IMG/VR virus record: IMGVR_UViG_3300050142_000050
Span: 1 to 64,000 of that record
DNA from: a virus
Taxonomy: Duplodnaviria; Caudoviricetes
Direction: 5' to 3' (one strand)
Length of the DNA: 64,000 nucleotides
Each line of letters begins with the position of its first letter. Position 1 is the first letter of the stretch. Below are positions 141-59,028 of this stretch, one piece after another. A model generated the notes under the pieces. The model saw nothing but the letters and a program-made list of their open reading frames with translations. It did no database searches and had not been told where the DNA came from. The translations under genes and the position numbers were made by a program.

Positions 141-2705
141 TTACTTGATATCGACATTGAGGTTGTACTTTTCAGGTAAGACCATGTTGCCTTCCTTCAG
201 CACGATTGTCTCACTGTCGGCAAAACCCTCATGGATACTCGCATGATGGTTCACCAAGAAGAGTTGTGATACAATCCCATCATCCAAGAGCTTCCTCAAG
301 AGGAGGACTAGGTTCTGCTTATGCTTGGTGTCGAAGGTTCTACCTGCTTCATCGAGACACAGAGGGATACCAGTCTTACCCAGTACCATACGCAGTCCGA
401 TATTGAGAGCTAGGTTGATGATCTCGGTCTGACCATCAGAGCACTTCGAGATATCTCTCACGGTATCGTAATCGCCTTTGACGAGGATCTCGTAGGAGAT
501 ATCCTTACTAGGGTCGATATGTTCGAGTTCTAGAGGTACTGTCCAAATATAACCGATGACGATGTTGGCAGCATCGATCACTTTGTTCATGAAGTCAGCT
601 GTCGATCGTCTTGGGATAGACACGAGGACCTTCTCGATCCTTTCTTGTTCTGCCTTCTCCTTCTCGACAGTAGCGAGTTCCTTCACGATCTCTTCATCAT
701 AACGGGCTCTGATGGATGTCTGGTCTCTCAAGACTCGTTCGATCTCACCCAGTCTGATTAGGAGTTTGGATCTCTCCTCACCGATAGATGCCTTTAGAGA
801 TGTGAGCTGATCGAGATCATAGCGATCAGCTACCATTTCTACAGACTGTGTACAACACTTAACCAAGTCGGCGATCTCATCCTTCACGGAATTGTACTGT
901 CGGATGTTCCAGATCTTCACACTGAGTCCACGTATCTCTGCTGAGATACTCTCATTTGAGCTAGAAAGCTCACTGAGCGTGTCTTTGATCTTTTTGATAT
1001 CCATTACTATCTTCACGGAATCGACGTTCTGTGAGCCTATACGGGCATTCCTGAGGGTATAGGCTGAATCTAGATCAGAGATGATTTCCCTAAACTGGTT
1101 CCACTTACGGATGTGGGTGTATAGAGCCATCATCCGATTGGTGATAATGGACGTGTTGTATTGTACAGTGTAGAGGACATCGATCCCTTTGAGGACATGG
1201 TGCAAGACTGGATTGGTCCTGGCCATATCCACGATACGAGAAAGGTTCTCCATGTGGGGTTTCGTGTTATTGAGATAGGTAGCAAGAGCTTGTGATGCCC
1301 ACTCCAGTCTACCTTTCTTGTAATACATCTTCCTGAGCTTGCGACGCAGTTTTTCACGCTGTTCTTCAGCTTCGGAATATTCAGCAAAGAAGTGACTGTA
1401 CAGGGGACATCTGTTCTTAGCACAGTTGTCGACAGGTATGTCACGTGGTGAAATCGAATGCCTGCGTTCCAGAGCTACTAGACGGCTCTCTGTGTCGGCT
1501 ATGATACCGTCAGCAGATGCTAGGCGGTTCTGGTACCTATTGAGACTCGCTTCGCGCTTATAACGCTTCCTACGGGAACACAGACGATGTTCCATGTTTG
1601 TAAAGACACTCAAGAGTGACTTGAGTTGGAAAATATCATTCTCCAGCTCATCGAGATCAGTAGATGATACTTCCACTGGTGGCTTTTCCACCGTGGCTTT
1701 ATCCCGGTGGATCTCGAGATTTTTGATGTTCTCCTCGATCTGTGAAAGATCGCTATCGGGACCTATCTCCTCATAGCGCAGTTCTAGATCTCTGAGTTCA
1801 TCTTGGAGCTTGGTATATTGCTCCATGAATCCACGATGACGCTCTTGGAGGGTGATATTCCTACTCGTGAGCCGATCGAGGATATCGCTGCGGACACTGT
1901 CATCTCTCTCCACATCGGAAAGATCTCTGAGATCCCTGCGCAGCCGCTTTGTCTTCTGTCTATAGGCATCGATAGTCTGAGTCATATTGAGGGGATGATC
2001 TGAGGGCGAGCGGCCATTCAGGTGGACCTCAATCGTCGAGAGATATCCTTGGAAGAGACCGAGGTCTTTCTCGAGCTGCTCTTTCTCCACTCGCATATCC
2101 GTCAGGATCTCATCACTCATCAACTCTTGCTCGAGCGTCATCTTCTTGAGCATGAGACGGGAGATGATCGCTTTACATCCTCGGATGGAAGATTGGATCT
2201 TACGATGCTTCTCAAACACGAAACGTAGATCAGCGGGGTTAGCCCGCATGATGAAGTCCTTGCGTTCAGAGGCTTTGGCTTTAGCCAGATTGATCCGATG
2301 GGCGATTAGACTCTCTGTGATGTCATCGATACCCAGATGCGTTTCGATGAGTACCTGTTGTTCATCTGTTGTACCACCTTCATTCACATTGGGGGTAGAA
2401 CTATCCCCGATGAAGAACTCATGGGGAGAAGATGGTTTCTTGTAATCGGTGGAGAGGGAATAATCAGTGCCATCCACCTCGAAATCGAGGATACGACGAC
2501 CTGACTTATTACCAGTAGTGTCGCCATAGAGACTGCGGGATTGAGGTGCTGGTATGAGCTGGGAAAGGAATGCTGACTTACCGCACCCATTCGTACCGAT
2601 GATGATTGCGATACGGGATGTGAAATGTGCTTCGATGCGGTAGATGTCTGCCTCTTTGAGGAGATTGAAGTCCTCCAGTAGGACCCGTTTGATAATCATT
2701 GTCAT
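141..2705 (-). CDS. sbcC: SbcC/Rad50-like SMC ATPase
   Basis: N-terminal Walker A GTNGCGKS, long coiled coil, central Cys pair (CAKNRC), C-terminal signature CSDGQ and Walker B LCLDE. Confidence 0.88.
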   Translation of the reverse strand: MTMIIKRVLLEDFNLLKEADIYRIEAHFTSRIAIIIGTNGCGKSAFLSQLIPAPQSRSLYGDTTGNKSGRRILDFEVDGTDYSLSTDYKKPSSPHEFFIGDSSTPNVNEGGTTDEQQVLIETHLGIDDITESLIAHRINLAKAKASERKDFIMRANPADLRFVFEKHRKIQSSIRGCKAIISRLMLKKMTLEQELMSDEILTDMRVEKEQLEKDLGLFQGYLSTIEVHLNGRSPSDHPLNMTQTIDAYRQKTKRLRRDLRDLSDVERDDSVRSDILDRLTSRNITLQERHRGFMEQYTKLQDELRDLELRYEEIGPDSDLSQIEENIKNLEIHRDKATVEKPPVEVSSTDLDELENDIFQLKSLLSVFTNMEHRLCSRRKRYKREASLNRYQNRLASADGIIADTESRLVALERRHSISPRDIPVDNCAKNRCPLYSHFFAEYSEAEEQREKLRRKLRKMYYKKGRLEWASQALATYLNNTKPHMENLSRIVDMARTNPVLHHVLKGIDVLYTVQYNTSIITNRMMALYTHIRKWNQFREIISDLDSAYTLRNARIGSQNVDSVKIVMDIKKIKDTLSELSSSNESISAEIRGLSVKIWNIRQYNSVKDEIADLVKCCTQSVEMVADRYDLDQLTSLKASIGEERSKLLIRLGEIERVLRDQTSIRARYDEEIVKELATVEKEKAEQERIEKVLVSIPRRSTADFMNKVIDAANIVIGYIWTVPLELEHIDPSKDISYEILVKGDYDTVRDISKCSDGQTEIINLALNIGLRMVLGKTGIPLCLDEAGRTFDTKHKQNLVLLLRKLLDDGIVSQLFLVNHHASIHEGFADSETIVLKEGNMVLPEKYNLNVDIK

Positions 2706-2790
2706 CTGTCTAGTCCTAGTGCAATCTATATCTCAAATGATGGGGCCTATAGTTGACTTCTTAAATTCCAAACTCATGGAATTTCAACTT

Positions 2791-2805
2791 CATATTACCA
2801 CTATG
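2791..2805 (+). promoter_or_regulatory. Putative early (virion RNAP) promoter CATATTAC-N5-TG
   Basis: Matches the phiKZ early promoter core TATATTAC; the same extended motif recurs at 5073, 37822, 47696 and 57302. Confidence 0.65.
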
Positions 2806-2810
2806 CAAAC

Positions 2811-2891
2811 AAGCAAAGTAGTTAGCTCAATCGGTGAGAGCAACATGGAGACATGTAGGTTGGTGGTTCGAGTCCATCACTAGGGATGCTT
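2811..2891 (+). ncRNA. tRNA-like RNA or pseudo-tRNA with a GAGA tetraloop instead of an anticodon loop
   Basis: T8A9, D-stem GCTC/GAGC, 5-bp stem ACATG/CATGT with 4-nt loop GAGA, variable loop AGGTT, T-arm GGTGG-TTCGAGT-CCATC, only 4 bp of acceptor stem (TAGT/ACTA), no CCA. Confidence 0.65.
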
Positions 2892-2922
2892 GTAAAATTT
2901 CGTTTTGTCAGGGAGGTCCCTT

Positions 2923-3165
2923 ATGTTTTCTTATACCACACTGATCGGTACTGATATAGGTCTTATCGCACTTGGTTGTATTCTTCTGGTGATGATCGCT
3001 CTCCTGGGTTATGTCTTCTATCTCGACCAGGTCGAGGAAGATGCCACGGATGAGGCGATGCTCAAGCTCATCGAAGAGATCTTCGTCACGGGTTTCCAAC
3101 CTGAAGATAAAGAAGCCGATGTAAAGAGGAAGCCCTTGCATCAGCTGGGTGACATCGGTTTCTAA
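2923..3165 (+). CDS. Small membrane protein
   Basis: GGGAGG RBS at 2911-2916, ATG at 2923, one long hydrophobic segment followed by an acidic tail. Confidence 0.65.
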   Translation: MFSYTTLIGTDIGLIALGCILLVMIALLGYVFYLDQVEEDATDEAMLKLIEEIFVTGFQPEDKEADVKRKPLHQLGDIGF

Positions 3166-3230
3166 TTTACATCTTCCAAGGCGAGATCGATGTCCTAGCA
3201 CCATGGAAGGTCAATAAGTGAAGATATCTA

Positions 3231-3254
3231 GGAGGGGTGGAATTCCACCCCTCC
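3231..3254. terminator. Perfect 24-bp palindrome
   Basis: ggaggggtggaattccacccctcc, intergenic. Confidence 0.55.
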
Positions 3255-3291
3255 TTTCAACTCCATTCATTTTTGCTAAGGAGAAGTAGTA

Positions 3292-3915
3292 ATGTCCGAT
3301 ACGAAAAAGAAGTATACCTCTTCCTTACTACCGGCAAACATGTTTCCTCATCATGAGGAATATACCCTCGAGGGAGTCGTGTTGAAATATTCCACCGAGG
3401 AGAAAGGCTGGTACATGGAGTCCGACTCGGAGATCCAGCCTGTGACTGCCGGTCGTCTCATGGTCAAGCACATGAACATTCGTGAGGTGAGGGTCAGCTA
3501 CACTACTGTGGGGCAGTTTATCATCGTCATCCGGCATACCACTCCGATGTTCAGGATCATCAGTACGGTGGAGATGGCGAATCAGTGGACCTCGGGAAAA
3601 CTCGATAAGGGATCGCTCCCGGTGGGTACTATCTATAACTCCGATGGAACGGAGGTCGTACCTATTCCGTCCAACTGCATATCGAGGACTAATGATAAAG
3701 CTACTATCGGTATCGATGCGAATGGGCGTCTCGTCAAGAAAGACTCGAACGGTAGGATGTTCGAGATGATCAAGCAGGGGACACCCGAACCGGGAATCTT
3801 TCTCCGTCCCGTCAAGCATACGTCCATCAGGACGTGGCTCGACCTCTATACCGATGAGGCCATCGATCTGATCCTCAAGTCGCCCATCACCACTTTCGCA
3901 ATCTACGACATTTAA
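3292..3915 (+). CDS. Hypothetical protein, paralog family A
   Basis: AGGAG RBS; shares motifs with the ORFs at 4046 and 5787. Confidence 0.75.
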   Translation: MSDTKKKYTSSLLPANMFPHHEEYTLEGVVLKYSTEEKGWYMESDSEIQPVTAGRLMVKHMNIREVRVSYTTVGQFIIVIRHTTPMFRIISTVEMANQWTSGKLDKGSLPVGTIYNSDGTEVVPIPSNCISRTNDKATIGIDANGRLVKKDSNGRMFEMIKQGTPEPGIFLRPVKHTSIRTWLDLYTDEAIDLILKSPITTFAIYDI

Positions 3916-4045
3916 TCCAAACCATTTACAAAAGGAACATACCCATGTCCGATAAAGATTTCAATCGTCCTCTCAAGCACGGCTTCACTCACTCACCGCG
4001 GTAGGAGACGCTGCGAAGGGGCTCAAGTCTTTTTTCACGAGAGAT

Positions 4046-5023
4046 GTGACCGTAAGTGTATCCCATAGTCTCGTAATACTAGCTGGTAGTCCCGCCCCAA
4101 CTGCTGTGAGAATTTCTCTAAATAAAGGTGCTACTCCGACCCATGTTGCGGAACAATGGTTGGAGATCGGCGGTCTGATGGGCTATCGAAACCTCGAGGT
4201 TTTTGAAATTAAGTTTGATGCTTTCCGTATGTTGAGGATCGACTTCGACAAATCCGAGGCATATGTCGTGGAGGACGGGGAGTCTTTCAAGCTCGATGTA
4301 AAGAAAACAGCTAGGTTAGTGATACCCGCGCAGATTGAAGGTGTCGATTCTGATCACCTCATGCAACATCTCCCCAATGAGCAGGAAGAAGATCACTCGT
4401 CTCATACTCTGGAATCCACCAGGCTCCACCTGTCCTCATTCGAGAAAGAACCTGAATCCGAATGGAATGGTATCTCCCACAAGCGTATCTCTTTCGACGT
4501 CATAGTCAAGGGTGATACTACCGAAGGGTGGATACTGACATCTGTCGCAGATGTCGACCCCATCCATATCGGTCAGTACCTCCTCAGGAATCTGTCTGGT
4601 AAGCATCGGAAGGAACGGGTTCGTCTCGGTAACTACCTTATTGTGGTCCATCTGGCTGACAAGGTCTTCTCGGTGAGAGACCTGATCTCGGAGTGTGACT
4701 CGTGGGTTTATACTGGAAATGGTGATCGCTACTCTGCTTCGGAAAAGCCTTGTATATACCACCAAGACGGATCCCGCATGGCGCTGTTGGACATGTACCT
4801 CACATGTAGGAATCCATCGAGTGGACTTCGTGTCTCAGAGGACGGCCGAGTATTTCTGTGTAATAGTTATAATTATCTTCATATTACCTACGATAGAGGT
4901 ACCATCAGGTTGACACCCGTCGAGGATGTTTTTCTGAAACATTGGCCCAGTGTTGATTTCGCAGAACTCTCAACGATCATGCTTCGTGAGAAATGCGACA
5001 GATTCGTGTGCAACAGCCTGTGA
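4046..5023 (+). CDS. Hypothetical protein, paralog family A (5' end possibly frameshifted, candidate start 3945)
   Basis: C-terminal half aligns by eye with 3292; weak GTG start, while a strong RBS-ATG at 3945 is in another frame. Confidence 0.7.
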   Translation: MTVSVSHSLVILAGSPAPTAVRISLNKGATPTHVAEQWLEIGGLMGYRNLEVFEIKFDAFRMLRIDFDKSEAYVVEDGESFKLDVKKTARLVIPAQIEGVDSDHLMQHLPNEQEEDHSSHTLESTRLHLSSFEKEPESEWNGISHKRISFDVIVKGDTTEGWILTSVADVDPIHIGQYLLRNLSGKHRKERVRLGNYLIVVHLADKVFSVRDLISECDSWVYTGNGDRYSASEKPCIYHQDGSRMALLDMYLTCRNPSSGLRVSEDGRVFLCNSYNYLHITYDRGTIRLTPVEDVFLKHWPSVDFAELSTIMLREKCDRFVCNSL

Positions 5024-5072
5024 TCTGAAGGAGGATCTTACGACCTCCTGAAAATCATTTTATTCTTATCCG

Positions 5073-5087
5073 CATATTACTCTATTG
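5073..5087 (+). promoter_or_regulatory. Putative early promoter CATATTAC-N5-TG
   Basis: catattac tctat tg, upstream of the strongly codon-biased gene at 5150. Confidence 0.65.
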
Positions 5088-5149
5088 AAGACCACGAGAA
5101 TGTTTGTAAATCTCGATCTTCTTTTTCGCGAAAAATAAGTGAGGTAACC

Positions 5150-5698
5150 ATGTCCAAAGAAAACGAAACCGTGAAGCCCTTCGATGAAGATGGCAAGATT
5201 CAGCTGCTGGCTGATCTGCTGCGTCAGGAATCGGTCGTCGACAAGTCCGGTGTTGTCAATGTCTCCTCGAAGAGCCTGGGCGTCGTGTTCGACAAGCGCG
5301 CTGAAGATGTCGGCGCTGACGTCACCTATGATGCCTTCAAGAAGGGCACTGACATTCTGTCGGACGTCTTGACCAGTGCGGCCGTCGTCGCTCATCGCAT
5401 CAACGATGAAAAGTTTGCTGCTGCTTCGAATGAAGACAAGGCCAGCGAAGATTTCCGCAACAGCCTGACCACCGACGTGCGTCTGAAGACGCCCGGCGGC
5501 TCGACCGAAGTCACGGCCAACTTCCAGACGACGCATCGCGTGCCCGGCAAGGCCGACGACAACGGCAACCCGGTCTACTCGACCAAGTATGGCACCACCG
5601 GTGTGTCGATCAATGCCAAGATGCGCATCGATCCGGCCCTGCACCAGCACAACTCGCGTCGTATCCTTTCGACGATCGAGGAAGTGAGCGCCAGCTGA
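5150..5698 (+). CDS. Hypothetical protein, probably highly expressed
   Basis: GAGG RBS, strong C/G-ending codon bias like chmA and the capsid gene, followed by a GCAA-loop hairpin at 5731-5757. Confidence 0.85.
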   Translation: MSKENETVKPFDEDGKIQLLADLLRQESVVDKSGVVNVSSKSLGVVFDKRAEDVGADVTYDAFKKGTDILSDVLTSAAVVAHRINDEKFAAASNEDKASEDFRNSLTTDVRLKTPGGSTEVTANFQTTHRVPGKADDNGNPVYSTKYGTTGVSINAKMRIDPALHQHNSRRILSTIEEVSAS

Positions 5699-5786
5699 CA
5701 TCAGGCTGAGCCTGATAATTACAAGTGATGGGGGTGGGGGCGCAAGCCTCCGCCCTCACTCATCATTATTTTTGGAGTGTCCTGAT

Positions 5787-6275
5787 ATGGCCAGCTATTA
5801 TTCGAGTTCGTATTTCTCACTCCCTTACAAAGACGAAGAGACTGCACAGAAAATGATGCAGATCTCTTTCATCGACCAGCATGGTGATGAAATTGAGGGT
5901 GTGGTATTCGAAGTCCTCAAAGAAACCAAACGTCTTTACGTCGGTATCGACGAACAAGCGGATACCATCGGTATCGGGCGGTGGATGCTGAAAGCAGGTC
6001 GGCTCAACGGTGCGACCGGTAATAACGCTGCCAACGTAGTGTACTCATGTTCCAAGAAGTGCGAGGATGGTTTCGGTGGGGCAGTGGTGGTGGTCTACCA
6101 CATCGGCCAGAGTATACTCGTGATTGATACTGCCGATATCGCATCCAGGATCGAGGCGCAGCAGGCTATCGGACGTGATATCCCGATTTCCACATTGTAC
6201 GGACCTGATGATGAGTCGATGGCTAGTCATCTTCACTACCTGAGGACCATCACTACACCTGTAATGGAGGGGTAA
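5787..6275 (+). CDS. Hypothetical protein, paralog family A
   Basis: GGAG RBS before ATG 5787; motifs IGRWMLK, GAVVVVYH and IPISTLYGPDD resemble 3292 and 4046. Confidence 0.7.
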   Translation: MASYYSSSYFSLPYKDEETAQKMMQISFIDQHGDEIEGVVFEVLKETKRLYVGIDEQADTIGIGRWMLKAGRLNGATGNNAANVVYSCSKKCEDGFGGAVVVVYHIGQSILVIDTADIASRIEAQQAIGRDIPISTLYGPDDESMASHLHYLRTITTPVMEG

Positions 6276-6277
6276 TC

Positions 6278-6472
6278 ATGTCTATCATTACAGACGGAAG
6301 GCTCGAGAAGTTCAAAACGAATGTCGAACAGAAGAAGGTGACCGTCAACTCCATCCTGAAGCTATGTGATGCAGGATATTACGAAGAGCCCGAAGAACGG
6401 CACCGCATCGATATTCCGTATACTGCGAGCTCGATCACTATCAAAACTCGTCGCAGTGTTACGGAATATTAG
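6278..6472 (+). CDS. Small hypothetical protein
   Basis: GGAGG RBS, tightly coupled to the upstream ORF. Confidence 0.6.
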   Translation: MSIITDGRLEKFKTNVEQKKVTVNSILKLCDAGYYEEPEERHRIDIPYTASSITIKTRRSVTEY

Positions 6473-6514
6473 TCTACGGTTCGAGAGTTCTCTTGTTCTG
6501 GCGAATCAGCCATT

Positions 6515-7156
6515 GTGATACATGCCGCCTCATGTGGTGACCAATCCAACTTCGGGACGGAAGGTCACTCTCTGGCGACAGCGCTCACCTATGGGTCTAA
6601 GGATGTGGTGTGGTTCCATCTCGATGACCATGGGATACCTCATCGTCCTATCACATCCGAGCGCTATGAGGTTTCACCTCCTACGGAAGAAGTGGTGATC
6701 AGTGGACTTGCTCCATTCAGCTTAGCCCTGATATCAGGGCATCTCATCGGCTTCAGGATCGCGACTAGTGATGATGCGTCCAGATTGGTGACGATCGAAC
6801 ATCGAGCACAAAAAGATACCATTCGTTTTCATACAGGTGAGTATCTACAAGTATGGGGTAAAGACGTTCTTGGGGAAGATACCAAGCTCTTCGAATGTAC
6901 TCCTTACGACAGGGCTTATGTCGATGAGACCATTGACATTCACACTAGGCTCTATATGGATCCTTGTGAGTACTCGGGGCACGTGAAGCTCTCGGAATAT
7001 GCACTCGAGTCTATTCGACAGCTCAAGTCCGTGATACGGGAATCTGCGACCTTCATCAGCAGCCTTGTCTTGGATAAATGGATCGATGAGGAATCTGTAT
7101 CGGATATCAGGAAACTGCTATCTGACGTACTCGTGGAACGTCACGACAAGTCGTGA
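6515..7156 (+). CDS. Hypothetical protein
   Basis: 213-aa ORF in the + strand accessory run; start uncertain. Confidence 0.65.
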   Translation: MIHAASCGDQSNFGTEGHSLATALTYGSKDVVWFHLDDHGIPHRPITSERYEVSPPTEEVVISGLAPFSLALISGHLIGFRIATSDDASRLVTIEHRAQKDTIRFHTGEYLQVWGKDVLGEDTKLFECTPYDRAYVDETIDIHTRLYMDPCEYSGHVKLSEYALESIRQLKSVIRESATFISSLVLDKWIDEESVSDIRKLLSDVLVERHDKS

Positions 7157-7323
7157 AAAAGATCATAGCCAAGATAGTGATACTGGTGTACGCTACAGTA
7201 TTCGCACTCGTCCCATTCGGTGCTAAGCCGGATGGAATCATTCTGATCACCTGTAGTATCGGAAATGTGATATTCTGTTATTATGGTGCCTATCTGATGA
7301 TACGCTGTATAGGAAAGATTTGA
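7153..7323 (+). CDS. Small two-TM membrane protein (56 aa, not in the ORF track)
   Basis: GTGA start/stop overlap with the upstream gene; translation MKKIIAKIVILVYATVFALVPFGAKPDGIILITCSIGNVIFCYYGAYLMIRCIGKI. Confidence 0.55.
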   Translation: MKKIIAKIVILVYATVFALVPFGAKPDGIILITCSIGNVIFCYYGAYLMIRCIGKI

Positions 7324-39937: not shown

Positions 39938-41260
39938 ATGACTCAGGAAAATATCCAAGAAGAAGATCTGAACGGTATTATGACAGATACCGATCTGAGC
40001 ATCCTCAGACTCGTCGATCATGATAACCAGTTCGTTGTCAGTGGTCGCAACCTCAATGGGAAGGTGAATGTCCTTAACTCTTACGACCTCAACTCAGGGG
40101 ACTTCGTAAGTAGTATCATCGAAGTCATCGCTTCTAATGGGAGTAATGGTGACTCGGTGGCTCATTGCGACTGTGGGTGCACTGAGGGTGATCAACGTAT
40201 CGGTAGTAGGTGTCGTGAATGCGGTACTTTCGTGCAGAAGCGTGAGATCACTGATGATGACAATCTGACCAATGCGAATTGGTTCAGGTGTCCTGAGGAA
40301 TTGGCTTCGGGATGGTTGCATCCTGTCGTATACATGATCCTCTCCAACTGGCTCGTCTATGAGCGCAAGAAGAAAGGTGGTCGCAACTACCTCGACGATA
40401 TCCTCAATGTCGACGCTGAGGTCGACTATGAGATCGCCAATGTGGTGAATGGTCGTGGGTTCCAATATCTGCGCGACAACTTCGATCGACTGATGGACTT
40501 CTTCATCAATGACCATCCGAAAATTTCGGAGAAGTCTGAGTCGAAGACTATGCGCTTCTTCCTTGACATGTACAAGGATGTCATCTGGTGTCGGTATATA
40601 CCGATCATGCCAGCAGCGCTCAATCCCATCACCAGTCGTGATCCTGACAGTGTCCAGGCTTCACGTCAGATCGATCCCATCACTACCCATGTGATGGAAG
40701 CGGCATCTATCCTCTCGGAGATCGACTTCGGGACTAAGCGCCGTAAGGATCGTCAGCTCAAGGTAGAGCGACAAGTGTGGGCAGCCTATCAGGCTATCAT
40801 CGCCTACAATGAAGAAGCCACTCGTAAGTTCCACTCGACGAAGAAGGCTATCCCTCGTACACAGATGCTGGGTGCTCGTATGCACCTCACATTCCGTGCG
40901 GTGATCGGTCCCATCATCGGTGAGCACGTACACGACGAACTCCACATCCCGTGGTCCATCGGCGTGAACACTTTGCGGGTGCACATCATCGGTATCCTCC
41001 AGAACCGATATGACTACATGCTCGTAGATGCTCAGCGCATCCACAGTCGAGCTATTACGACCTATGACAAAACAGTCGATGACATCATGAAGTCTTTGAT
41101 TGAGGAGAGTCCATGTCACGGTCTACCTGTACTGTGGCACCGCCCTCCATCTATCCGGGATGGTAACGTGATGCTCAAGCGCGTCACGCGTATCAAGACG
41201 GACATCAACGATCCATCAATTAGTATGACGCCTATCGACGTCGCTCTCCCAAATGCGGAT
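39938..41260 (+). CDS. nvRNAP beta' N-terminal subunit (phiKZ gp55-like), exon 1
   Basis: Zn ribbon CDCG...CREC, GARMHLTFRAVI, HRPPSI; ends in NAD of the catalytic NADxDGD motif. Confidence 0.88.
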
Positions 41261-41627
41261 TAACTATTAGTCCTACGTCATCGAGAGGTGACGGTAAATA
41301 TCTCCTTAATTGCGGGGAAGTCTCATTAAGTTCTCACACACCAAGTGGATCATGGAAACATGATAATCCATGGCGACGCTAATTACGTCGGTACGGTAAA
41401 AGATGTGAGATAGAGAAAATCCGCAGCCAAGTGCCTAAGTCCTTCTTGGATATGGTAAAGGTTCAACGGCCATCGCAGGCATGCGAGTAGGGATCGAGTG
41501 ATCCCGAAATGGGAGACCCCTCCTCTGGAGGGTGAAGATATGGTCTGTTCCTACATGAGAATGTAGGCGGAGCTGCCTCTATATGAGGACAAGCCGGGTG
41601 AGTCTAACGAGCTCACTGGACATCAAG
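41261..41627 (+). ncRNA. Group I intron (367 nt, no homing endonuclease) in the nvRNAP beta' gene
   Basis: P1 ggat|taa-cta-tta-gtcc with U.G at the splice site; P aattgcggggaa 41308, Q aatccgcagc 41418, R gttcaacggccat 41461, S aagatatggtc 41535; terminal G; splicing restores NAD-YDGD. Confidence 0.92.
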
Positions 41628-57404: not shown

Positions 57405-58667
57405 ATGCCTAGTAATATTGGCAAGGAATATCCCTATCTTGCAAACACCACAATGGACGTTCGTCTGTTGGGTATGCCATATCTACTCACATCGTTCCCA
57501 CAGCAGATCTCAGGATCTCGTGGTGACATGTACAACCACCACCAAGCACAAGCGATGGTGCTCAATAAGCCGGGTCTGGCTGGTGTGTTCTCTGGATTGG
57601 AACCTCAGTTCCGTGAACACATGGTGGAACCTCTAACGCGTCCGCATCGGGTGAAGGTCCTCAGGGTCATTCCGAAGTACCGCAGGGGTTTCATGGACAA
57701 CTGGGCCAAGAATTGTCCAGAGCGTTATGTGATCGTCGAGACAGAGGAAACCAATCCCAAGACCGGAAACAAGTTCGGTAGGTTGGACGTCTTGACGATC
57801 AGTACCTATTACGAAGGTGCTAATGGATTCGGCTATCTGCCGATCCTCAAGAATGTGGACAAGCTGACAGTCGGAGCCTATCTGGATCCTGACATGATCT
57901 TCTCCCATTCCCCTGGGATCATCGGTGACGATTATGGCTTCGGTGTGGATCTCAATGTGATCTATGGATCCTTTGCTGAGACCATCGAGGATGCTTTCGT
58001 CATCAGTGAATCAGCAGCGAAGAAGCTGGAGACCACTGAGGTCAAGTCCCACATCATCAATGTGGTACCTGATCGTCGTCCCCTCAACCTCTATGGTGAC
58101 GATAGTCTCCCGCAGTTCCTCCCCAACATCGGGGACTTCGTGCGTGAAGATGGTATCCTCTGCGGGCAGCGTCCTTCGCACTGGGCGACTGTGGCAGCTG
58201 ATGCTGATCCTAATGCCCTCAAGGAGGTATTGCCCTTCCAGGACAAGTTGTGGCGTCCTGCTGGCATGACTGGTGACACTAAGGTGATCGACGTCACCTT
58301 TGCAGCTAACCTGAACAACATCGGTGATTGTTATCCCCAAGTGGAGCGGCACATCAGCGACTATGTGACTGGGTGCTGTAAGTCACTGCTGGAAGTCTTC
58401 TACCAGTACTGTGAGCCGATTGGGAATCGTCCTCCTCTCCTCACTCCAACAAATCGCATGAACGAACTCTTCGTCCGTGCGTTCAAGCACTTCATCGGGA
58501 TGGGAGGACGCGATGTCCGTCTCGATGGTATCTTCAAGTCCGAGATGAAGCGTAGTCAGCTGGAAGGATTCGACGGACGTCCTGTCGAGTTCATTCAGGC
58601 TAAGGTGGTGACAGCTAAACGCCGTAAGGTGACTGCTACATCGAAGCTTACTGATAAATCGGGTGGT
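57405..58667 (+). CDS. nvRNAP beta C-terminal subunit (phiKZ gp71-73-like), exon 1
   Basis: SRGDMYNHHQAQA, GVDLNVIYGSFAETIEDAFVIS, ends KLTDKSGG; RBS and ATG at 57405. Confidence 0.87.
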
Positions 58668-59028
58668 TTACACTAAGCCTCCATAATCTGAGAAGGTTAT
58701 GGAAATCTCCTCTAATTGCGGGGAAGCCCTTAGAGCTCAAGATACCAAGTCTGAGAATAACTCTCTCAGATGGCCGATGTAATCAATCGGGTATGGTAAC
58801 AACTCTTGAGATTGGGTAATCGCGCAGCCAAGCAGGGCCTCTATGGGGTTTTGAAGGTCCAACGGCTAACCGCTTACCACGGTGTAGGAGTCAGTGACTC
58901 CGAAATGGGGAGCACCCTACTCTAACGAGAGGGTGAAGATATAGTCTGCTCACATGTGAGAGCATGTGCGGAGCTGCCTCTATACGAGGACGAGCCGGGT
59001 GAGTCTAACGAACTCACTGGACAGTAGG
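58668..59028 (+). ncRNA. Group I intron (361 nt, no homing endonuclease) in the nvRNAP beta gene
   Basis: P1 ggt|tta-cac-taa-gcc with U.G; P aattgcggggaa 58714, R gtccaacggcta 58857, S aagatatagtc 58936; terminal G; splicing gives KLTDKSGG-KGV, aligning with the beta motif KLAGRHGNKGV. Confidence 0.9.

Follow-up and report, generated by a model that had tools for sequence, protein, structure and literature searches.

What is an RNA that has the whole body of a tRNA, and neither of the ends at which a tRNA works, doing directly behind a phage promoter that is probably early? The tRNAs carried by phages are usually explained either as codon supply or as replacements for host tRNAs cut by defense nucleases. 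A whole tRNA body with both ends closed fits neither explanation, and points to a role exercised through tRNA recognition. Such a module, 85 nt long, spans 2809-2893 on the plus strand of the stretch of DNA analyzed here (the window), which is the opening 64 kb of the virus record IMGVR_UViG_3300050142_000050 (249.6 kb, estimated to be 89% complete); the record represents a giant phiKZ-type phage from leaf litter, and the module would lie at the 5′ end of one of its transcripts. With considerable confidence, we regard the module as a real, tRNA-derived, non-decoding, transcribed leader element. The locus is laid out as follows.

141-2705, minus strand: SbcC-like ATPase (Pfam SMC_N), the divergent neighbor.
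2791-2805, plus strand: promoter-type motif CATATTAC-N4-ATG, phiKZ-type and probably early, with CATATTAC at 2791-2798 and ATG at 2803-2805.
2809-2815, plus strand: outer helix, 5′ strand ACAAGCA, pairing with 2887-2893; the would-be tRNA leader (pair probabilities 0.72-1.0 in the 85-nt module).
2816-2818, plus strand: internal loop, 5′ side AAG, at tRNA positions 1-3 (sequence and fold).
2819-2822, plus strand: acceptor-stem remnant, 5′ strand TAGT, positions 4-7 (the Rfam tRNA alignment begins at model position 4).
2823-2824, plus strand: U8 and A9 (Rfam alignment).
2825-2841, plus strand: D arm GCTC/GAGC with a 9-nt loop containing A14, A15, G18, G19, and A21 (sequence and Rfam alignment).
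2842, plus strand: A26 (Rfam alignment).
2843-2856, plus strand: equivalent of the anticodon arm, a perfect 5-bp stem ACATG/CATGT with the GNRA tetraloop GAGA at 2848-2851 (pair probabilities 0.94-1.0).
2857-2861, plus strand: variable loop AGGTT with G45, G46, and U48, the last able to pair with A15 (sequence and Rfam alignment).
2862-2878, plus strand: T arm GGTGG-TTCGAGT-CCATC, a 5-bp stem with one G-U pair and the canonical T loop TTCGAGT (sequence, Rfam alignment, and fold).
2879-2882, plus strand: acceptor-stem remnant, 3′ strand ACTA, positions 66-69 (the Rfam alignment stops at model position 67).
2883-2886, plus strand: internal loop, 3′ side GGGA, in the place of positions 70-73, with no CCA after it (sequence and fold).
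2887-2893, plus strand: outer helix, 3′ strand TGCTTGT; the would-be trailer (fold).
2894-2922, plus strand: A/U-rich spacer and ribosome-binding site GGGAGG, the latter at 2911-2916 (sequence).
2923-3165, plus strand: first gene of the operon, encoding an 80-aa orphan protein (gene called in the assemblies).

Compared with a canonical phage tRNA (RF00005), the module has the same D arm, variable loop, T arm, and 5-bp anticodon stem, and the elbow and core bases are all kept (U8-A14, A15-U48, G18, G19, A21, G22-G46, A26-A44, G53-C61, T54-A58, T55, and C56); no pair in the D, anticodon, or T stems is broken, and the arms and intact elbow described in a first-pass annotation of this DNA are all found where it had placed them. 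The departures from tRNA are at the two functional ends only. At one end, the 7-nt anticodon loop, with its U33 and anticodon, is absent, and 4 nt of GAGA closed by a G-C pair stand in its stead; the same annotation had rightly seen a perfect stem with a GNRA cap that cannot decode, and the Rfam alignment agrees, with 4 nt where the model expects a 7-nt loop. At the other end, the acceptor stem has 4 of the 7 pairs, followed by a 3 × 4 internal loop (AAG/GGGA) and then by 7 bp of pairing between leader and trailer, and discriminator, CCA, and free 3′ end are all lacking; the earlier account of the acceptor holds for the 4 bp, the internal loop, and the missing CCA, but had given the outer helix (ACAAGCA/TGCTTGT) 5 bp rather than 7. 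Both alterations are constructive: a random 4-nt loop is GNRA in 1 of 32 cases, and a perfect 7-bp helix in random flanks has P ~0.002 with offsets of 0-5 nt allowed.

The ancestry of the module is that of a tRNA. The Rfam tRNA model RF00005 matches 2819-2882 (+) over model positions 4-67 with 37.4 bits, where the gathering cutoff is 29; its E-value comes to 3e-4 when the whole window is searched with all 4227 Rfam families, and 2.7e-7 when this genome is searched with the tRNA family alone. A chance match is ruled out by this score. At the module Rfam gives the tRNA family only, and ARAGORN calls neither a tRNA nor a tmRNA in the window (its default run on the genome likewise leaves the module uncalled), as had been predicted from the letters. 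These same two results dispose of the tRNA-like domain of a tmRNA, in which one would expect CCA and a reading frame for the tag besides the acceptor and T arm; a working tRNA is ruled out by the lack of an anticodon loop, the incomplete acceptor stem, and the lack of a free 3′ end. The minimum free energy (MFE) structure of the 85-nt module is the cloverleaf, at -24 kcal/mol with helix probabilities of 0.5-1.0; for the 110-nt stretch the MFE z-score is a modest -1, as is common among RNAs the size of a tRNA.

The first-pass annotation had considered that the tetraloop might be an assembly error, or that relatives might carry a normal 7-nt loop here. The former is ruled out by identity of the sequence across independent samples: four contigs were compared and are identical in the module, which is present in 24 public runs (no RNA dataset is listed among the public runs containing it). 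As for the latter, the nearest relatives found have no tRNA or tRNA-like element of any kind at this spot. Specifically, i) relatives of the SbcC-like neighbor outside the lineage are all at or below 39% identity, and the two nearest (39% and 29%) have a matching gap without a tRNA-like element, although one of them has a TATATTAC motif in it; ii) whole-record scans of five cultured phiKZ-like phages give tRNA matches of normal length only; iii) an exact-word search of IMG/VR with the element returned nothing; and iv) blastn of the 1-kb region against 50,697 phage records gave no match, while the element alone finds ordinary tRNAs in those records at ~76% identity, the nearest being tRNA-Met, Ile, and Arg. 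No diverged relative carrying the element was found, and the module as a single case is weakly supported. Within the lineage, comparison of four runs shows 11 variable sites in 2340-2511 but not one in 2512-3500, so that no covariation is seen there. In the variant strain, which appears in three runs, all 11 differences fall inside a 170-bp part of the SbcC-like gene, and most are a multiple of three apart; on sequence this variation looks like a recombination patch.

The SbcC-like gene also identifies the phage. It has tblastn matches in 275 jumbo-phage records, several of them annotated SbcC and including Phikzvirus PA7, OBP, and Agricanvirus Simmy50 (identity to cultured relatives at most about 31%), and we therefore count this phage among the phiKZ-like giant phages. 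In cultured phiKZ-like phages the divergent partner of SbcC is a baseplate assembly gene across a gap of 20-70 bp; in the window, an operon of small genes (2705-7200) occupies that spot, and the two of its products that were searched are both orphans. The 80-aa protein, which has a hydrophobic N-terminal stretch and, by eye, a putative single membrane helix, has no homologue but itself among 5.8 billion proteins, and the search with the 207-aa product of a downstream gene was likewise empty. Judged by this gene content, 2705-7200 is a probable insertion site for accessory genes, and the module thus sits in a lineage-specific accessory region.

The outer helix begins 4 nt after the ATG of the promoter-type motif, so that the module directly follows it, much as the first-pass annotation had reported. 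The word CATATTAC occurs 18 times on the plus strand of the 249.6-kb genome and not once on the minus strand, and is usually followed by C-N3-RTG; within the window its sites are at 2791, 4880, 5073, 37822, 47696, and 50787. The form TATATTAC, which we take to be the consensus word of phiKZ-type early promoters, shows the same asymmetry when followed by N4-RTG: plus-to-minus counts are 12:0 in Phikzvirus PA7, 13:0 in BRkr, 3:0 in OBP, 3:0 in Simmy50, and 11:0 in the uncultured phage G002, and reversed-pattern controls give 0-1. To judge from these counts, the CATATTAC/TATATTAC-type motif is a conserved, presumptive promoter signature of phiKZ-like phages. Early promoters of the phiKZ type are described as AT-rich motifs ~10 bp upstream of the start, with strong strand bias (PMC11512511; PMC8244752). 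Since the published early motifs sit at that distance (PMC11512511), transcription would begin near 2803-2806, and the module would be the 5′ end of the transcript.

Is the module alone of its kind? We scanned IMG/VR for tRNA D and T arms too closely spaced for a normal anticodon arm and obtained 105 loci, corresponding to 82 distinct elements with shortened anticodon arms; 20 of the 82 have a 4-5-bp stem with a 4-nt loop, and 6 of these 20 loops are GNRA, against the 1 in 32 expected. Elements of our working class have canonical D and T arms and, in place of the anticodon arm, a 4-5-bp stem capped by 3-4 nt; the module is built in this way, in common with L061 and about 20 other distinct IMG/VR elements. 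It shares the D and T arms and the 4-nt-capped 4-5-bp stem, often with a GNRA loop, with the look-alikes L044, L048, L076, L022, L049, L101, and L061; no kinship in sequence with the other look-alikes was seen beyond what any tRNAs share. Most of the others differ from it in their position in tRNA arrays and in their 7-bp acceptor stems, some with CCA, whereas the module has a closed, extended acceptor and a place in a 5′ leader. For several look-alikes located within phage tRNA arrays, the full model gives 50-57 bits; these retain an acceptor stem of 7 bp and encode CCA. Our literature searches turned up no publication on phage tRNA look-alikes that lack an anticodon.

Three groups within the scan may be recorded here. 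The 71-nt look-alikes of L044 (1213-1283 and 1524-1594), L048, L076, L107, and L113 lie in the arrays of huge phages with at least 40 tRNA genes, and have a GCAA or GAAA cap, 7-bp acceptor stems, and an encoded CCA. A family made up of L022, L046, L066, L093, and L011 has a 5-bp stem with a TTCT or TTTT cap and a 7-bp acceptor stem, and is directly preceded by a hairpin. In a further family (L041, L081, L086, L091, L096, and L100) a 7-bp acceptor stem is combined with an anticodon stem of only 3 bp, whose 8-nt loop is rich in A, and a conserved 40-nt leader stands in front.

One look-alike, L061, also has a phiKZ-type promoter directly ahead of it, as the module does. It lies on a 235.8-kb contig (34% GC) that is a second phiKZ-type jumbo phage by its PhiKZ_MCP match, and L061:10681-10810, equivalent to G002:213959-214090, reads in order TATATATTAC-N4-ATG, tRNA look-alike, a run of seven T residues, and the next promoter. 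The look-alike scores 43.1 bits and has a 5-bp stem with the 4-nt loop ATCT, and its variable loop and T loop are identical to those of the module; ARAGORN calls no tRNA in it. With a T-run of its own, the unit stands free and is not a leader. The two phages have no neighboring genes in common around these elements, and no relatives of the L061 phage were found among cultured phages. L061 may be an independent case, with the reservation that a freshly disabled tRNA gene would keep its promoter too. Two specific promoter-anchored scans of IMG/VR returned L061 only, and in a promoter-anchored metagenome scan all tRNAs among the matches listed were normal.

We consider it somewhat probable that the module is kept by selection. 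The first-pass annotation had called the cap selected rather than decayed; its structural reading stands, and selection is arguable from anatomy and recurrence only, the recurrence among phiKZ-type phages being the one analogue, L061. As to what might be selected, the L-shaped body of a tRNA is kept while both working ends are closed, one by the GNRA cap and the other by a leader/trailer helix that would bury the acceptor. With a phiKZ-type promoter, probably an early one, ahead of it, the module would form the first ~90 nt of the orphan-operon transcript, and it could mimic the tRNA body while remaining inert, bound by some factor with an affinity for the tRNA elbow and anticodon stem; it should resist anticodon-loop cutting, charging, CCA tailing, and (probably) RNase P, and would thereby act as a competitive ligand or decoy, its target most plausibly a host tRNA-targeting nuclease; and it would be made from the very first transcripts, perhaps to be freed from the mRNA when the A/U-rich spacer is cut. 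Decoy, elbow ligand, and processing element had all been put forward as candidate functions in the first-pass annotation. We favor a decoy or competitive ligand because the changes are limited to the two substrate ends and both add order, while the body is untouched. The free-standing L061 unit would fit a role in trans, and the decoy idea has a precedent in print. Against it is the lack of comparative support in the lineage: relatives are without the element, and the downstream genes are orphans. The modest z-score of the fold, and the shift of the predicted fold in longer contexts, also count against it. We therefore hold a trans-acting decoy or ligand to be a tentative proposal, at best somewhat short of an even chance.

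The geometry of the transcript suggests another role, in which the module is purely a cis-acting 5′ leader and does nothing in trans: its compact fold would shield the early mRNA from 5′-end-dependent decay, mark a site for processing, or, through competition with sequence downstream, govern how accessible the ribosome-binding site is. The module begins ~4 nt past the presumed start and ends 29-30 nt ahead of the start codon; there is no room for a second promoter after it, so that the first gene must be transcribed through it, and a consensus scan finds no terminator after it. Other leaders from this type of promoter are roughly 25-50 nt long, and here the leader would be ~32 nt if the module were removed; one could take the leader for an ordinary one into which the 85-nt module has been inserted. 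Moreover, in longer sequence contexts the predicted fold shifts, and the outer helix's 3′ strand has an alternative partner in the ribosome-binding region. But a simple hairpin would suffice as a stabilizer, which leaves retention of the full set of elbow bases unexplained, and the L061 analogue is not a leader at all. An exclusively cis-acting role thus seems to us unlikely, if well worth keeping in mind.

Equally, the module could be a dying tRNA gene, that is, a promoter-driven phage tRNA that has lost its anticodon loop and acceptor end, and whose tidy features are luck. It is confined to a single lineage and an orphan accessory region and is absent from relatives, and its nearest blastn matches are the ordinary phage tRNAs given above; loss of tRNA genes is plausible in this phage, which has one standard tRNA left in the whole genome (tRNA-Thr at 102,829, by Rfam and default ARAGORN) where a related phage group carries 13. 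Decay, however, should also hit the stems and tertiary bases, and none is damaged; the altered sites have instead gained order, and the 7-bp helix (P ~0.002) reaches beyond the borders of the tRNA. By our reading GAGA, having no U33, is not one 3-nt deletion of a canonical loop, so that more than one mutation is required. Finally, the same outcome is met in the L061 phage and in many other phages, with GNRA loops in excess. We accordingly rate simple decay as doubtful, on a par with the purely cis-acting leader.

The poorest of the alternatives is a Y-RNA-like scaffold, in which the outer helix with its internal loop would be the binding site for a protein (a ring of the Ro60 type, or another) and a nuclease would be recruited through the tRNA-like part, as in bacterial Ro60-Y RNA-PNPase: the layout of a stem from the 5′ and 3′ ends, an internal loop, and a non-decoding tRNA-like domain is indeed that of the bacterial and phage YrlA/Yrn1 Y RNAs (RF02553), and the order of D then T arm with a closed stem at the anticodon position resembles D. 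radiodurans Yrn1 (PMC4201824), but YrlA itself is permuted, with its closed stem at the acceptor position (PMC4201824), whereas the arms of the module run D, closed stem, T as in tRNA, a whole-genome search with the YrlA model is empty to an E of 10, and the 249.6-kb record (the phage record alone, estimated to be 89% complete) contains no TROVE/Ro60 or RtcB gene that might supply a partner protein, so that a YrlA-type Y RNA is ruled out and the scaffold in general is very improbable.

In its acceptor end the module differs from the tRNA-shaped RNAs that are cut from longer transcripts. A 7-bp acceptor stem is a principal determinant of cleavage by RNase P (PMC4201824). Processing signals of the RNase P-dependent class have an unbroken stack of acceptor and T arm, which puts the cut at position +1. 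Of this stack the module has the T arm and 4 bp, but no pairing at positions 1-3, and its leader is engaged in a helix; with the acceptor open just where cleavage is expected, it is probably not a good RNase P signal, and the closed acceptor end thus tells against the classical processing signal entertained in the first-pass annotation. Reportedly, mascRNA is derived from MALAT1, and the C4 RNA of phages P1 and P7 is excised from its own operon leader by RNase P. Elements of the mascRNA/C4 type need an RNase P-competent acceptor stem. Like them, the module is tRNA-shaped, lies inside a longer transcript, and has no working anticodon; it differs in that its acceptor is broken at the expected cleavage site and clamped by the leader-trailer helix.

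The module, then, is of a known kind, a tRNA-mimicking RNA, and what is distinct is its form: within a recurring and apparently undescribed set of look-alikes, it combines a closed acceptor, a leader position, and a promoter of the phiKZ type. If the decoy reading is true, a giant phage would deploy an RNA-based anti-defense at the earliest moment of infection, and the ~90-nt RNA would provide a simple handle for finding the host factor that it binds. More speculatively, phiKZ-type (nucleus-forming) jumbo phages might practice RNA-only counter-defense from their first transcripts, using an uncuttable, unchargeable copy of the tRNA body to soak up a host nuclease or elbow reader before phage translation needs the tRNA pool, with the module and L061 as two independently built examples; this we regard as improbable, and offer as a conjecture.

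Two further observations concern the surroundings of the module. A near-identical ribosome-binding context, A(A/G)GGAGGTCC(C/T)TTATG, occurs at two genes behind this type of promoter, at 2910-2925 of the window and at ~218800-218830 of the genome, and a small hairpin is possible over its Shine-Dalgarno bases. The window also contains two group I introns, at 41251-41567 and 58658-58968, with nearly equal Rfam scores of 76.5 and 76.4 bits.
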